Assembly: GCA_048881705.1 (NCBI GenBank)
Contig: JBHLSH010000004.1
Coordinates: 34,015-98,014 of the forward strand
Length of the DNA: 64,000 nt
Origin: Candidatus Heimdallarchaeota archaeon
Lineage (GTDB): Archaea; Asgardarchaeota; Heimdallarchaeia; Hodarchaeales; Hodarchaeaceae
Direction of reading: 5' to 3'
Below the pieces are notes generated by a model. The model saw only the letters and a list, made by a program, of their open reading frames with translations, had not been told where the DNA came from and made no database searches. Every line of letters starts with the position of its first letter. Position 1 is the first letter of the stretch. The translations under genes were made by a program, and so were the position numbers. This document shows positions 52,901 through 56,128 of this stretch, one piece after another.

Positions 52901-55900
52901 GTCATAAATGGCGGCTCTTTAACCATCACAGCGGCTCCGTACACCAACGATGACGTTTATATTAGCTGGTCCGCCAATGATGCTGATGTGTTGGATATTC
53001 TAACATTTAACATTACTTGGTACCTTAATGGCGGGAAATTTCTAAGCAAAAATTACACGACCTTCTCAAGTTATCTTGGATTTGGAAATACAACCAAAGG
53101 CCAGAATTGGACATTTTCTGTTTTAGCTTATGATGAAGCGGTTTCCTCATCAACCGTTTCCCTTGGTTTCAATATAACAATTCTTAATTCTCTTCCAAAA
53201 GCAGAGAACCTAACGCTGACCCAAAATCCAAGTACAACGGATGACCTGATTCCAGGTTGGGATTTCTCTGATAAAGATAATGACGGTAGAAATGATAGCT
53301 CAACCCGGATTTCTTGGTTTAAAAATGGGGGAAATCAAACAAATTTGTTCAATAAACCCTATCTAGAGTGGGGTAATACCAGTAAGGATCAAGTTTGGTG
53401 GTTTAAGATCCAGGTTTATGACGGGGAAGACTATTCAATTGTCTATGAGTCTGTACACGTTCAAATTTTGAATAGTCTGCCCTATAATAATTCGAAACTC
53501 CCTTTACCAGTTGATCCTTCCAAAAGGAATGGAATCCAAATGGTACTGGGAGACTTGATATCCTCGTTTACTGACAATGATAGTGATACAATAACAATAA
53601 GTGAGATAGTGTGGTACAAGGACGGCGTACTACAAGGAAACCTCAATGGAACTTTAACTGTATCAGGAACCAGGGTGGTTAAAGGTGAAGTTTGGAATTA
53701 TGCGGTAATCCCCTCAGATGGCGAGGGTATAGGAAATGCAGTCAATTCTACGAAATTTGTAATTAGAAACTCTCCTCCCACTGCTTCTGGGGTTGTTCTC
53801 AAGGCGCTTCCAGATGGAAATACGAGTTATGCGTTCACGCTTCAGGATCTTAATGCAACATGGCTTTTCCAAGATCTTGACGGTGATCCTGCTTCATTTG
53901 GAGATTTCCTCATCTTTTGGTATAGAAAACCCATTGGGAGTCTTTTTTTCCAATTACAAGGCTCATTAACGGGTTTAACCACGGTCCCCTGGACTGATAT
54001 CAGGAAATTTGATACTTGGTACTTCAATTTAACCGTTAGTGACGGGTATGATCGCTCGCTAGTATCGTATCAATCCAATTCGATCTTTATCTTGAATTCG
54101 CCCATACAAATTACTCGTTTATGGTTTGAAAACAGTTCAGGTTCTGAAATAACAAACCTCCTTATCTTTTCGAATGAGTATTTTACCCTAGAATGGGATT
54201 TCTATGATGCAGATGCAGACCCCAGCCTAGCGACAATTCATTGGTACAAAAACGACGTTTTTCAACCTCAGCTAAATGATTCCAAATCCATAACTCAGGT
54301 ATACCTGACAAAAGGAGACCAATGGTACGCCAAGGTTTGGTTATATGATGGCACCGATACTTCAAAAAGTTTGACGTCCCCCATAATGAATGTAGTTAAT
54401 ACACCACCCATGATTACATCTGTTTCTTATATGTTCGACCTAAACAGCCAGGTGAACTTGCCTAGGATCAATGAATTTTATGTGGAGGACGAGGATATAG
54501 TAATTTCTTATTTGGGTGGATTCATGGATATCGATGGAGACAGTGATAGCTCAACTATCAAATGGTTTAAGCAGCTTCTAAACGGAACTTGGGTTGAATT
54601 ACTAGTTTATAGGAACAATCTTAGTTTACCACACACGATAACTTCTCCAGGTGAGATCTATTATTGCATGATCACTCCTAATGATGGAGACGACAGTGGT
54701 TTGCCAATTAATTCCAGTCTAATTGTGATAGAAAGCAGGCCAGTTATTGAATACTTTGAAATCACAGCCAGCTCATCCAGTGAGGGGATTTATGAATTAA
54801 CGGTGTCTGCTACCGATGAGCTGAATGCAATTTACGAGGTCGAATTCCTAATCGTGTATAATGATAACTCGTCAAAGAGATTCTTGGGAAGATATACAAC
54901 TGGAGCCAATTGGACCCTTTCTCACTCCTTGGAGAACTTAATTTATCTCGATACGGTTGTTTATGTAACGGTAACGGCCAGTACATTGATTCAGGGGAAT
55001 TTTGTTGTCTCGGTTCAAACTGAATTCAGTTTCATTGCTACAGATAAAGCTCCACCACGAGTTTTGTATTCTTTCTTTAATCTGAATGATGAAAATAATC
55101 CAACAAACATCACTTTTTATGTTTATGCAGAAGAATTTGGTTCAGGCATATCTGATATCACCCTGTTTTACTTTTATAGTGCCGTTAACGAGAGTAATGG
55201 TGGTCAAGGAGCTGGCTATCAGCAGTCAGAACCAGAATGGAATATGGTATTGATGAATTTCCACTCAGAAAATTCAACTGGGAATTTTTCTGTTTACTCC
55301 GTTACAGTGGATTTCCAACTAGATCAAGATGCATATGATGTAATTTACATGATTGCAACTCGTGATAATGATGGAAATACGAATCCCCAAGCATTTGACA
55401 TTCGGAATTATCCCCAGCGGATTTCGGAACAACGAATCTTCCGCAGAGTTTCAGAAGGCATTCCTGAATGGATCCTGTGGATTGCAGGTTTAATCGTATT
55501 CGTTATATTCGTGGGAGCGGTTGTTTATGTAAAATACATCCAAAAGCCAGCAGGCCTGGATAAAGAATTGGTAATTAAGAGGATCGCCAAAAATAAAGTT
55601 TCATACAGAGAAGTGATGAATTCTCTTGATTCACATACCATTGGTATTGTTATTAGCTTTTTCGACCAACGACATGGGCCCATACCAATTATTGTTTTTC
55701 CAGAGATTTTGAAAGATAACTTTCAGGGCTTAGTCGAGCTTTCAGACCGATCCTTCTCTGGCACTGGATTTACCTCTAATCACAGTATTGAACTTCCTTC
55801 AAGCTACGAGTTCCAGCTTGGACACGAATTCCCCCTAAATGTAATTTCTTTTAGCTTTAGTCTCGAAAATCCTGAAGCACGAGGCGGCCAAGAGAACCTG

Positions 55901-56128
55901 ACTTTTAACATACTAATCCAAAGGGAAGTTTTCCCATTATTGAATCAATTTGTTGATGAAATTAGGGATAAAGTCCATACTACTCATATGTTAATGGCTA
56001 CAGATTCACAAGCGAAAAAGGAAATTCTCGAATCAGTATTTGAAGTTAGAAAATTCGCTTCATACGTAGTATTAGCCTACGAGCAAATTTATGGGACTAT
56101 CGAGTTGCTGACCGAAGGGGAGGAATAG
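46931..56128 (+). CDS. Giant single-pass receptor-like protein B: signal peptide, 3 x (DUF2341 + LamG) with an inserted domain, about 13 stalk repeats, TM, cytoplasmic longin domain
   Basis: Same module grammar as protein A; TM WILWIAGLIVFVIFVGAVVYV; 198-aa tail with FFDQRHGP and EARGGQ. Confidence 0.8.
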   Translation: MKKRGKIFRLTVFGLLLLNIITAMGIQGDSSLEILGMKIARIRGDSKYEGPAVSHVRSIPRLMRFSTNSSSTSLQDHSGSSIPNMNIMGGYSLPSWGGLGYEYRKNFTVNSNKVAADLTNFPVLINLEGDTDLLNVRQTSGNDILFTDDSGTKLDFQIELFDQNEPSFVAWVKTNLSSTTNTIISMYYGNSTAANQENPSGVWDSNYVGVWHMNEDPSGTAPQIIDSTSPSSHGTTSGAMTSSDQMEGIISGSVDLDGTNDYVDFGNPSELQITGAFTLEVNFLADDVQNDYLINKMGAGGSRGWDINLDDDFPNAPDGWMFFQISPDGTNMKSVGYERIIVGQWYHVVGVYSPSTYLRFYVNGQLAAEDTASIPSSMYDPNLPVRLGFRSDSSSSLFDGSYDEVRISTTARPAEWISAEYQNFYNSSHFYSVGHQEALANTFFKYQKILTINSSLVSGNNDLTNFPFLLDLYNTDLNDSENVWPNASNLVFINLKTKRKLFYEIELFDQYYNSTHAHLVAWIQLDTLSVAEDTQIGIYYGNQVDSGMNRAKYVWSEYLGVWHMSDPVLNGSLSSKVHIDSTPNNNHGNQNGNNITSRGQIGDAQDFDGIDDFIDVADTDSLDLIGDTYYTISGWFYRDSTSTVDVILDKFYPESPEYTGYSLWIDNSDGLLHFIVTDDDDDGVHYKSTSNFNSLPNDWYYFSINFDTGINSVPFEWSMFINGINDSAVYSIYGADDLAPESFSTSKNLANLTFGASANNSNFFDGKIDEIRLISKTLSPDWIQTEYTNQKDPNSFYSVSVTVNNPNWWKNDSFSRRKDLFVNSTLITGEEENFILRPKAIGLYSDFYATGGASAPNYKAVLDKESDGDYSYIYQDLNHNSSTWQNGYDLYYDPSVQDLSKDINITRVSLFSIARRTGPLINARLRNYIRVIGTTGYTLTTRTDHAIGGGYALYGDEWIINPRTNEPWLWEDLQNCEFGVRGWITMDSSQTSYELRVSQVYLVVSYTRIKPMRNFPLMVDIYDSDLKSNIQADASDMAFYDETGRKLHHEIVDFDQSYGPSLAHLTAWVTVPWISPTLNALTMYYGNSSLSNQESKKETWSKEYLAVYHMEETPPGNILDSNDNALHLTPSGSMDSSDLVAGQISNAIDFDGSNDQLYTTQSISLQDFTVSAWFKYDSGTAWHTIVNIDRAGTDFYHFGIYNDEPQFDDTGPTRWFTYTMSSSTWYHITYTYDSNSRMLKCYLNGVKIGTTYFITISPITDDFQVGAWNTFNEFDGIIDEVRLLNTTKSVAWIEAEYENQQNPASFVLVGSENQRKPGISNLALNPAVLWSNTSLTLTYDFYDPGGVPENGTEIRWYNNSAIQPSFNDTKTIPSTALNRGDQWYATVRPKSGGLFGEMVNSSTITVVNTPPNVQSVILNPVLAYTTSTITIANVTSDYEGDTITNYHIEWYRNSIYDSSYDNYNLLLPANISKGETWYCRVRAYDGADNSSWASSGIVTIENSIPQAINLGVTPDPLYTNDTLTANWAISDLDNDPQVSFTISWYKFGVNQTSLFNSTNVKPGNTTKGDVWSFKVRIFDGENYSTLTSLPSSVQILNSPPSITVMDLTSNLNTTAEDLVASWAVDDNDIEDLPSMLFNITWYLNGMKNRSSITSLYTATLSYIFTKKSDNWTYVLRAYDGTDYSKTLSLGYNVTILNTPPEVSTLSLTSDPVTTQNLQASWNFLDDDNDGLIFNVSWYLNGILNSTDATSLNYIILESGNTSKYQNWTFAVTAYDNEAYSPTLSLGYNVTVQNSIPLISSNGFNETSPVGPTKDFNITYAYLDADGDGEDTNALIVYWFTNYAYNASFQNKTTIYSTNTTAGQVWYYTIRVFDGETYSQNYSSLLMIIGARSNTAPLALYLNVTPSIPLTSDILTVNYTYFDSDNDPQFLHEIIWFRNNVSMDQFNNMQSLPTIATSEGDEWNFTIRVHDGITWGPISVSPTYMIVNSPPVINGGSLTITAAPYTNDDVYISWSANDADVLDILTFNITWYLNGGKFLSKNYTTFSSYLGFGNTTKGQNWTFSVLAYDEAVSSSTVSLGFNITILNSLPKAENLTLTQNPSTTDDLIPGWDFSDKDNDGRNDSSTRISWFKNGGNQTNLFNKPYLEWGNTSKDQVWWFKIQVYDGEDYSIVYESVHVQILNSLPYNNSKLPLPVDPSKRNGIQMVLGDLISSFTDNDSDTITISEIVWYKDGVLQGNLNGTLTVSGTRVVKGEVWNYAVIPSDGEGIGNAVNSTKFVIRNSPPTASGVVLKALPDGNTSYAFTLQDLNATWLFQDLDGDPASFGDFLIFWYRKPIGSLFFQLQGSLTGLTTVPWTDIRKFDTWYFNLTVSDGYDRSLVSYQSNSIFILNSPIQITRLWFENSSGSEITNLLIFSNEYFTLEWDFYDADADPSLATIHWYKNDVFQPQLNDSKSITQVYLTKGDQWYAKVWLYDGTDTSKSLTSPIMNVVNTPPMITSVSYMFDLNSQVNLPRINEFYVEDEDIVISYLGGFMDIDGDSDSSTIKWFKQLLNGTWVELLVYRNNLSLPHTITSPGEIYYCMITPNDGDDSGLPINSSLIVIESRPVIEYFEITASSSSEGIYELTVSATDELNAIYEVEFLIVYNDNSSKRFLGRYTTGANWTLSHSLENLIYLDTVVYVTVTASTLIQGNFVVSVQTEFSFIATDKAPPRVLYSFFNLNDENNPTNITFYVYAEEFGSGISDITLFYFYSAVNESNGGQGAGYQQSEPEWNMVLMNFHSENSTGNFSVYSVTVDFQLDQDAYDVIYMIATRDNDGNTNPQAFDIRNYPQRISEQRIFRRVSEGIPEWILWIAGLIVFVIFVGAVVYVKYIQKPAGLDKELVIKRIAKNKVSYREVMNSLDSHTIGIVISFFDQRHGPIPIIVFPEILKDNFQGLVELSDRSFSGTGFTSNHSIELPSSYEFQLGHEFPLNVISFSFSLENPEARGGQENLTFNILIQREVFPLLNQFVDEIRDKVHTTHMLMATDSQAKKEILESVFEVRKFASYVVLAYEQIYGTIELLTEGEE

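Follow-up and report, generated by a model that had tools for sequence, protein, structure and literature searches.

A giant Heimdallarchaeal surface protein ends in a predicted folliculin-type longin and is encoded beside a Rag-type GTPase gene

Introduction

What does the cytoplasmic end of a giant archaeal surface protein do when its gene lies beside a gene for a Rag-type GTPase? At the lysosome, eukaryotic nutrient signalling is built around Rag GTPases and their longin GAPs (FLCN-FNIP and GATOR1). Both kinds of protein, Rag-like GTPases and FLCN-type longins, had been detected in Asgard archaea, each separately. In strain MK-D1, GTPase and longin genes generally lie outside operons and so partners are hard to match (PMC10933270). 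A conserved DENN/LAMTOR1-like operon carries a non-Rag GTPase (10.1101/2020.10.19.343400).

Here, we describe a locus in a 64,000-nucleotide window, the whole stretch of DNA that was analysed, from a Hodarchaeales-type Candidatus Heimdallarchaeota archaeon. It encodes two giant paralogous proteins, receptors A and B. We propose, with a probability of about 0.6, that receptor B carries as its tail a folliculin-type longin that acts as a Rag GAP at the cell membrane through the neighbouring Rag protein.

Results

Receptor B is a single-pass surface protein with a short cytoplasmic tail

Receptor B is a 3,065-amino acid protein encoded on the forward strand (positions 46931–56128). The reading frame is open for 3,065 codons and a TTG start is assumed. 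The N-terminus is a hydrophobic signal or anchor. The ectodomain consists of three DUF2341 plus Laminin_G_3 modules (Pfam PF13385 and PF10102), followed by a long run of Ig-like repeats. N-glycosylation sequons are enriched in the ectodomain (80 observed versus 46 expected, z = 6). In appearance, the ectodomain looks like an adhesin. A hydropathy scan, together with the sequence, places a single C-terminal hydrophobic helix at approximately residues 2843–2867 (55457–55531, forward strand), followed by the K/R-rich segment KYIQKP. The cytoplasmic tail starts directly after the helix at codon 2868 and occupies forward-strand positions 55532–56128, the last three of which (56126–56128) are the stop codon. 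It is 198 amino acids long and comprises two short helices and then a longin fold. The chain ends 11 residues past the final longin helix, without a DENN or NPRL2-type C-terminal module.

The source genome carries nine paralogous tail genes, and up to 10 are found per genome across the tail family. Its members, from Heimdall-class Asgard archaea, are adhesin-like surface proteins that cross the membrane once and are heavily glycosylated. Their ectodomains differ, whereas the cytoplasmic domain of ~190 residues is constant.

The tail is assigned to the GAP longin class

The AlphaFold2 model of tail B has a pLDDT of 94.1 and the order β-β-α-β-β-β-α-α. In tail numbering, the strands span residues 36–45, 49–56, 88–96, 100–112 and 120–129, and the helices residues 58–78, 141–157 and 162–187. 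The β2-α-β3-α-α arrangement that defines a longin is thus present in the model. When the model was used to search with Foldseek, longin domains took the top ranks. Tail B was structurally nearer to GAP longins of the FLCN/SMCR8/NPRL2 type than to other longins. LOV/PAS matches were also returned (E ~4e-4 or weaker, rmsd >10). These vanished upon VIA re-alignment and we ascribe them to a generic α/β likeness.

Sequence profiles gave a fainter signal. Tails A and B had no Pfam matches at E 1, and tail B had none even at E 10. The Pfam Folliculin family (PF11704) matched 17 of 57 family tails, all weakly (best E 2.4e-4), and was the sole Pfam family to match more than two of them. Since tail B lacks a PF11704 match and those of its relatives are weak, the relation is remote and, by score, B falls outside Pfam membership. 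PF11704 also matched the tail regions of two genes of the C19 cluster (17.9 bits). A soluble protein of the source genome that reaches the PF11704 cut-off aligned to the tail profile (E 2.2e-4) and placed its arginine on tail residue R117. Against PDB sequences, a profile of nine tails returned coiled-coil and designed-helix noise and did not find the FLCN longin; the FLCN C-terminal DENN crystal chain (PDB 3v42) appeared at E 0.87, which we regard as a chance match. A search of PDB sequences with the FLCN-like protein of the source genome, meant to establish which chains are FLCN, gave no useful match. Related tail loci in other genomes were retrieved from a closer alignment of 10 sequences. 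Taken together, the model, the fold search, conservation across the family and the weak Folliculin matches in 17 of 57 tails support the assignment of tail B as a predicted membrane-tethered longin of the folliculin/SMCR8/NPRL2 class. The same lines of evidence bear out the initial annotation, which had read the tail as a longin with an arginine in the expected loop.

The GP motif and a candidate arginine finger are widely conserved

A GP motif and an arginine finger together mark both GAP longins and a class of Asgard longins, as set out in PMC12290439. The same paper places the GP motif of GAP longins in the β1-β2 loop or at the start of β2. In receptor B, the GP motif is G2916-P2917 (tail G49-P50; 55676–55681, forward strand). 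It opens strand 2 and is part of FFDQRHGPIP. Among the 57 family tails, G49 is present in 56 and P50 in 44. The candidate arginine finger is R2984 (tail R117) in the β4-β5 loop, in the context ENPEARGGQEN. Its codon, CGA, lies at 55880–55882 on the forward strand, where the arginine codon had been placed originally. The residue is present in 45 of the 57 tails. FDQxxG(P/A) and ARGG(F/Y/L)ENL occur in 16 of 16 tails from two further families of the class.

The tail is the best-conserved part of receptors A and B

Receptor A is a 3,666-amino acid paralogue of receptor B with the same architecture. It is encoded on the reverse strand (33050–44050), with its tail at 33050–33634. The initial annotation had claimed that the two tails are about 55% identical, well above the ectodomains. 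Our alignments agree. By BLASTP, tails A and B share 107 of 195 residues (55%, E 1e-75), whereas the ectodomains are 32–34% identical. In semi-global alignments, identity was 37.2% for the LamG region, 37.1% for the Ig-like repeats, 39.4% for the membrane-proximal region, 43.8% for the TM helix plus juxtamembrane segment and 55.6% for the tail. Across the collinear C-terminal halves, we also compared 141 sliding windows of 190 residues. That of the tail ranked top (0.56); the median was 0.39, and windows ending ahead of the TM helix reached 0.48 at best. The motifs that had been named for tail B are all found there and are common to A, with one correction. The sequence EARGGQ is not shared as such; receptor A reads DSRGKQ, so that the arginine and the following glycine are what the two have in common.

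Recent gene conversion between paralogues, in place of selection, could in principle produce such similarity, given nine paralogues within one genome. This is very improbable. Nucleotide identity between the tails is just 60%, and conserved residues use identical codons at a fraction of 0.45 in the tail versus 0.43 in the Ig region. Hence, synonymous sites are equally diverged in both regions, which argues against recent conversion, and the same motifs are retained across families. The view that the tail is under strong constraint is thus upheld by paralogue identity, and the orthologues speak neither for nor against extra constraint. For the single orthologue pair used, receptor B and L010, ω (dN/dS) was 0.105 for the tail and 0.149 for the ectodomain, a non-significant difference (bootstrap interval −0.07 to +0.13); synonymous sites between A and B are saturated. 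Hence, the ectodomain is under purifying selection as well. The divergence seen between the paralogues is that of the older paralogue ectodomain.

Rag GTPase genes adjoin tail genes

The gene next to receptor B encodes Rag3 (56156–58390, reverse strand), a protein of 744 amino acids that carries a Gtr1/RagA-type G domain at its N-terminus (Pfam PF04670, 107.4 bits; cut-off 22 bits). The alignment shows the P-loop GLSEAGKT, DLGGQ and HKND. The 545-residue extension (residues 200–744) had no Pfam match. The two genes are convergent, with 27 nt between their stop codons, and are therefore not part of one transcript. The arrangement is orthologous at L010, L029, L039 and L042. Receptor A is followed on the same strand by the gene for Rag2 (32091–32993, reverse strand), a 300-amino acid Gtr1/RagA-type GTPase (PF04670, 134.5 bits) that starts 56 nt after the receptor A stop codon. 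This pairing recurs at L022. The third such GTPase, Rag1 (28093–29001, forward strand), has 302 amino acids (PF04670, 127 bits).

In the source genome, only two of the nine tail genes have a Rag neighbour. In other genomes, a Rag-like gene flanks 12 of 34 tail loci, and in five of these it lies no more than 100 nt from the end of the giant gene. The two other families of the class were represented by 14 loci chosen without regard to Rag. Here, a Pfam-confirmed Gtr1_RagA gene lay within 110 nt of 11 of the 14 tail genes, on the same strand in 11 of 11 cases. Across five such genomes, 12 of 22 Gtr1_RagA genes adjoin a tail gene. Divergence of the tails was correlated with that of neighbouring Rag3-like proteins (Mantel test, r = 0.82, p = 2e-4), but we give this little weight because shared species history is a confounder.

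These data bear on two further explanations. First, the tail might act on other small GTPases (Arf-related, Arf-like or Ras-like), with the Rag neighbours being a lineage-specific arrangement. The target of SMCR8-C9orf72 is Arf rather than Rag; the source genome encodes many small GTPases (31 weak-to-strong matches); and seven of its nine tail genes are without a Rag neighbour. Conversely, adjacency to Rag is seen in three families of the class, mostly with both genes on one strand and no more than 110 nt apart, and takes in over half of the Rag genes in five genomes. In addition, the predicted Rag3 complex described below passes its controls. We consider this explanation improbable. Second, the tail might serve the giant protein itself, in sorting, secretion or cytoskeleton anchoring, like SNARE/SRX longins and with no role in a GTPase switch. 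The adhesin-like ectodomain would fit, and certain longins do function without GTPases (PMC10933270). However, the GP and arginine signature, the likeness to GAP longins and the operon-like Rag genes would all be left unexplained, making this less probable still.

A tail dimer is predicted on the nucleotide face of Rag3

We modelled two copies of tail B together with the G domain of Rag3, GTP and Mg. The complex scored 0.79 and the best of three controls 0.00. In the calibration set, 58 of 80 solved complexes and two of 110 mismatched pairs attained the mark for this score, although our run, unlike that set, used its own alignments and ligands. At least 78% of contacts agreed between runs, and partner pLDDT was at least 87. 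The predicted contacts join tail residues 43–54, 64–80 and 111–122 to Rag3 residues 24–25, 46–58 and 73–76. Both the GP motif and R2984 are in the predicted interface, R2984 in both tail copies. The tail homodimer was the only pairing modelled. In the prediction, a dimer of tails thus sits on the adjacent Rag at its nucleotide face, although familiarity of the model with the solved FLCN-RagC and GATOR1-RagA complexes may be a cause of the pass. In the solved active FLCN complex, RagC is contacted by FLCN F10, loop 10–16 and Arg164 (PMC9473554). Gene context and the controlled prediction thus favour a Rag-type partner, consistent with the GTPase interaction that had been anticipated for this tail.

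Gene linkage and a predicted complex indicate association only. Hence, the tail could instead be a non-catalytic platform, either a Ragulator-like anchor that recruits Rag or an exchange factor, with the arginine used for binding. Most dimers of longin and roadblock proteins serve as GEFs or scaffolds (PMC10933270), and the arginine is missing from 12 of the 57 family tails. We judge this unlikely, though less so than the alternatives above, and favour a Rag GAP.

Discussion

The longin domain of FLCN (yeast Lst7) offers the closest comparison (PDB 8DHB, 6NZD and 6ULG); FLCN is the catalytic subunit of FLCN-FNIP, a GAP for RagC/D. FLCN is soluble and recruited to lysosomes, whereas tail B is joined by one TM helix to an extracellular region of ~2,840 residues. 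In FLCN and SMCR8 the longin is followed by a DENN module, which tail B does not have. The longin GAPs NPRL2 (in GATOR1) and SMCR8-C9orf72 likewise belong to soluble complexes of several subunits that carry DENN or other C-terminal domains, unlike tail B. In the Lokiarchaeota Roadblock-Longin protein (PDB 8YQG), the longin is part of a soluble fusion and not TM-tethered. The bacterial roadblock GAP MglB, acting with MglA, a Ras-like GTPase, is similarly a prokaryotic dimeric roadblock/longin-superfamily platform on a small GTPase.

The domain class is already known in Asgards from the 2025 Traffic paper PMC12290439. Its passages on Asgard FLCN/SMCR8-type longins share with the tail family the domain class, both motifs and an emphasis on Heimdallarchaeia, and raise Rag or ArfR GTPases as possible clients. 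Neither a giant surface architecture nor Rag gene linkage is mentioned in those passages, and a word search of the main text returned neither "transmembrane" nor "extracellular". Our literature searches found no transmembrane longin receptor, membrane-tethered GAP longin or Rag operon, and no paper on the Lokiarchaeota Rag/longin PDB entries or on DUF2341 in Asgards.

The architecture, fold class, conservation of motifs and tail, and conserved Rag linkage are described above; tail-Rag binding is a prediction of the model, and catalysis and outside-in signalling are what we infer. We propose that tails would pair, as longins do, and that the pair would dock on the P-loop, switch I and switch II of the cognate neighbour, the 744-residue Rag3 for B and Rag2 for A. 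R2984 and the GP loop would then complete the GTPase active site, making the tail a Rag GAP held at the membrane. Binding or clustering of the ectodomain might set the local Rag nucleotide state. More tentatively, the proteins could be outside-in receptors, in which ectodomain binding or clustering changes how the folliculin-type tails pair or are oriented, and thereby the GTP state of dedicated Rags at the cell membrane.

Three lines tie Rag to a GAP longin here: a gene order that is conserved and operon-like in three Heimdall-class families, matching catalytic motifs, and a complex prediction run with controls. The longin is moreover fixed to a surface protein, and the putative cognate pairs are tail B with Rag3 and tail A with Rag2. 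Because the tail is best conserved and its gene lies beside a Rag-type GTPase gene, a link from surface to Rag may predate eukaryotes. These features also point to the cell envelope as the place where the Rag switch first came into use. Were the proteins indeed outside-in receptors, they would represent a forerunner, at the plasma membrane, of the FLCN/GATOR-Rag axis of eukaryotic nutrient signalling, with expansion of the paralogues (to as many as 10 per genome) supplying many inputs to one conserved output.

FLCN works with FNIP, and we identified no FNIP-like partner for tail B. A soluble 341-amino acid protein (28998–30023) was considered as a related uDENN and set aside, as its alignment to the tail profile was not significant (E 0.23). 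A stand-alone longin of 145 amino acids (62907–63344, forward strand) aligned to the tail profile with hhalign (E 3.1e-5, 115 columns) and had no Pfam match. It retains the GP motif, has a serine at the position of the tail arginine and is a possible non-catalytic partner of the tails. The third gene of the C19 cluster, also without the arginine, encodes another candidate partner longin.

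Architecture of receptor B and its tail

Receptor B is the product of a 9,198 nt ORF (46931-56128, + strand) encoding 3,065 residues, with the cytoplasmic tail at the 3′ end (55532-56128). The N-terminus is a hydrophobic, signal-like segment. Pfam places three DUF2341 + Laminin_G_3 modules after this segment, followed by ~1,500 residues of Ig-like repeats. A single hydrophobic helix (about residues 2843-2867) precedes the 198-residue tail. Ahead of the helix are 80 N-glycosylation sequons, compared with 46 expected from shuffles (z = 6); the tail has 2. This enrichment fits a topology with the ectodomain outside and the tail inside. 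The paralogue, receptor A (33050-44050, - strand; 3,666 aa), is built to the same plan. A PIG-L family gene (GlcNAc-PI de-N-acetylase-type; 45485-46273, +) lies 657 nt upstream of B and 3′ of an enoyl-CoA hydratase gene. Any tie to glycosylation of receptor B is speculative.

The tail was modelled with AlphaFold2 using an alignment of 57 homologous tails (pLDDT 94.1, pTM 0.89). The model has two short helices and then a beta-beta-alpha-beta-beta-beta-alpha-alpha longin fold. The top Foldseek match was a chain in the FLCN-FNIP2-Rag-Ragulator complex. Next in the fold comparison came DENND1B (8.7), then coat, SNARE and TRAPP longins (8.1 or below); roadblocks scored ~5.8-5.9. For three matched FLCN-FNIP2-complex chains, the aligned range begins at residue 2, which fits FLCN as the matched chain; in FLCN, F10 and loop 10-16 lie right at the beginning of the longin (PMC9473554). 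Pfam gave no match for tail B. Across the 57 tails, Folliculin (PF11704) was the sole Pfam family to match more than two (17 matches, best E 2.4e-4). The genome also has a soluble ORF that scores at or above the PF11704 cut-off; when this ORF is aligned to the tail profile, its Arg falls on R117.

The tail carries GAP-longin-type motifs

In the model, strand 2 opens with G49-P50 (G2916-P2917), and R117 (R2984) lies in the beta4-beta5 loop. Among the 57 family members, 56 have the G, 44 the P and 45 the R. FDQxxG(P/A) and ARGG(F/Y/L)ENL occur in 16/16 tails drawn from two further families of this class. PMC12290439 describes a GP motif together with an arginine finger as the hallmark of GAP longins and of one Asgard longin class; the tail family keeps this GP motif and, at R117, a candidate for the finger. 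Tail B is most likely a Rag GAP of folliculin type, tethered to the membrane. The ectodomain differs among paralogues and, on this account, the tail is their common output. In a rival reading, the tail is non-catalytic and anchors Rag or serves as an exchange platform. In another, it helps to handle the giant protein itself.

The tail is the best conserved part of A and B

The initial annotation had placed A/B tail identity at about 55% by eye, well above that of the ectodomain. Alignment of tail B with tail A (33050-33634, -) gave 107/195 identical positions (55%). All of the motifs quoted earlier were found in tail B, and the Arg codon at 55880-55882 is indeed CGA, encoding R2984 in the context ENPEARGGQEN. 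By segment-wise alignment, identity was 37-39% for the ectodomains (32-34% by BLASTP), 44% for the TM region and 55.6% for the tail. In sliding windows (n=141) the tail ranked top at 0.56; the median was 0.39, and the best value ahead of the TM helix was 0.48.

Gene conversion could have produced such an excess in the tail. However, the tail DNA is only 60% identical, and the share of identical codons at conserved residues is similar for the tail (0.45) and the Ig region (0.43). Hence, gene conversion was rejected. We also measured omega between B and its orthologue at tail locus L010, the sole orthologue pair with enough sequence (90% identity across 823 residues). Values were 0.105 for the tail and 0.149 for the adjoining ectodomain, with a bootstrap interval of the difference spanning zero, so purifying selection acts on both. 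The contrast between A and B comes from paralogue ectodomains that diverged long ago while the tail stayed fixed.

Distribution of tail genes and candidate partners

A profile search returned only 197 matches at E <= 0.001 among 1.84 billion representatives. Relatives come from Hodarchaeales, Kariarchaeaceae and Heimdall-type MAGs, and are named 'DUF2341 domain-containing protein' or 'hypothetical'. Among 301 genomes of the phylum, strong tail matches were found in 19/20 genomes of the window's genus (up to 10 copies; nine in B's genome) and in 20/29 and 8/11 genomes of two other families of the same class; elsewhere in this sample matches were weak only. The domain lies at the C-terminal end of long proteins, and many short matches look like fragments. 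The ectodomains of relatives differ in Pfam content (LamG, InlB B-repeat, cystatin, others). In two sister genomes (G062:C193 and G102:C10), this tail closes open frames of 10,431 and 10,069 aa, so the family ectodomain can be over three times as long as that of B.

A 2020 study (10.1101/2020.10.19.343400) already noted Asgard longins resembling NPRL2 and FLCN, and the Asgard GAP-longin class with GP and Arg motifs was published in 2025 (PMC12290439). In these two sources and PMC10933270, Rag genes in operons with such longins are unmentioned or explicitly not found. A transmembrane, giant-ectodomain GAP longin was not found in the literature searched. New here are the A/B domain contrast in numbers, the codon test against gene conversion, the omega values between orthologues, a controlled predicted complex of the tail with the adjacent Rag, and a same-strand Rag module conserved in two further families.

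On another contig (G000 C19:4-17876; L007-L009), three tail-bearing genes of 3,423, 1,546 and 986 aa lie in tandem, and the third has Gly at the position of the others' Arg. Many genomes of the genus share this cluster (e.g. G217:C52, G211:C52, G119:C87, G265:C36, G130:C14). It could represent a catalytic/non-catalytic pairing like FLCN-FNIP. Within the window, a stand-alone 145-aa longin (62907-63344, +) with the sequence FDEKVGP matches the tail profile at E 3.1e-5. Ser takes the place of the Arg in this protein, which has no Pfam match and is a candidate for a non-catalytic partner. Convergent with Rag1 is a 341-aa ORF (28998-30023, -), also lacking a Pfam match, that has a GP-like IFEDIGP at its N-terminus; at just E 0.23 against the tail profile, any longin kinship is tentative.

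A predicted complex between the tail and Rag3

A complex of two tail copies with the Rag3 G domain, predicted in the presence of GTP and Mg, scored 0.79 (best of three controls 0.00). Since similar complexes are already solved and custom alignments and ligands were used, this score signifies likeness and is no proof that the pair binds. The 0.79 mark is attained by 58/80 solved complexes and 2/110 mismatched pairs. Runs agreed on at least 78% of contacts, with partner pLDDT of at least 87. On the side of the tails, the predicted contacts fall in the GP loops (43-54), helix 1 (64-80) and the Arg loops (111-122); on Rag3 they fall in the P-loop (24-25), switch I (46-58) and switch II (73-76, with Q73 among them). 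In its solved active complex, FLCN contacts RagC in a similar manner through F10, loop 10-16 and Arg164 (PMC9473554).

Rag genes adjoin tail genes

Pfam identifies three Gtr1/RagA-type genes in the window: Rag1 (28093-29001, +), Rag2 (32091-32993, -) and Rag3 (56156-58390, -; 744 aa). Rag2 is co-oriented with A and starts 56 nt past its stop. Rag3 and B converge, and 27 nt separate their stops. In other genomes, a Rag-like gene is in the retrieved flanks of 12/34 tail loci and, at 5 of the 34, within 100 nt of the giant gene's end. For the two other families, 11/14 tail loci, picked solely for long contigs, have a Rag gene on the same strand at most 110 nt away. Usually, a tail gene there is followed by a co-oriented Rag of 500-700 aa and then by a convergent Rag of 410 aa. 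This module, with tail genes of 1,450-1,640 aa, a Rag fusion and the convergent Rag, is present at L049-L053 and L058-L061 (genomes G026, G133, G157, G172, G196, G202, G238, G262 and G280); its tail genes are now and then duplicated in tandem. Pfam assigned Gtr1_RagA to 4/4 neighbours scanned (from L049, L050 and L056) and, in five genomes of these families, 12/22 Gtr1_RagA genes adjoin a tail gene. That this order survives among tails sharing just 21-26% identity with B speaks for a functional link. In B's genome, however, 7/9 tail genes are without a Rag neighbour. Another rival is that the client is a GTPase other than Rag.

After its G domain, Rag3 has a 545-residue extension (residues 200-744; 56156-57790, -) with no Pfam match. 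Orthologues retain the extension and are 727-755 aa long, apart from a 648-aa copy at L010. On G000 contig C46 (1-2321), a truncated Rag3-like gene (-) at the contig start is followed by a 313-aa Rag (+). Tail genes at L029, L039 and L042 are followed by the same arrangement, and a further receptor gene probably lies across the C46 assembly break.
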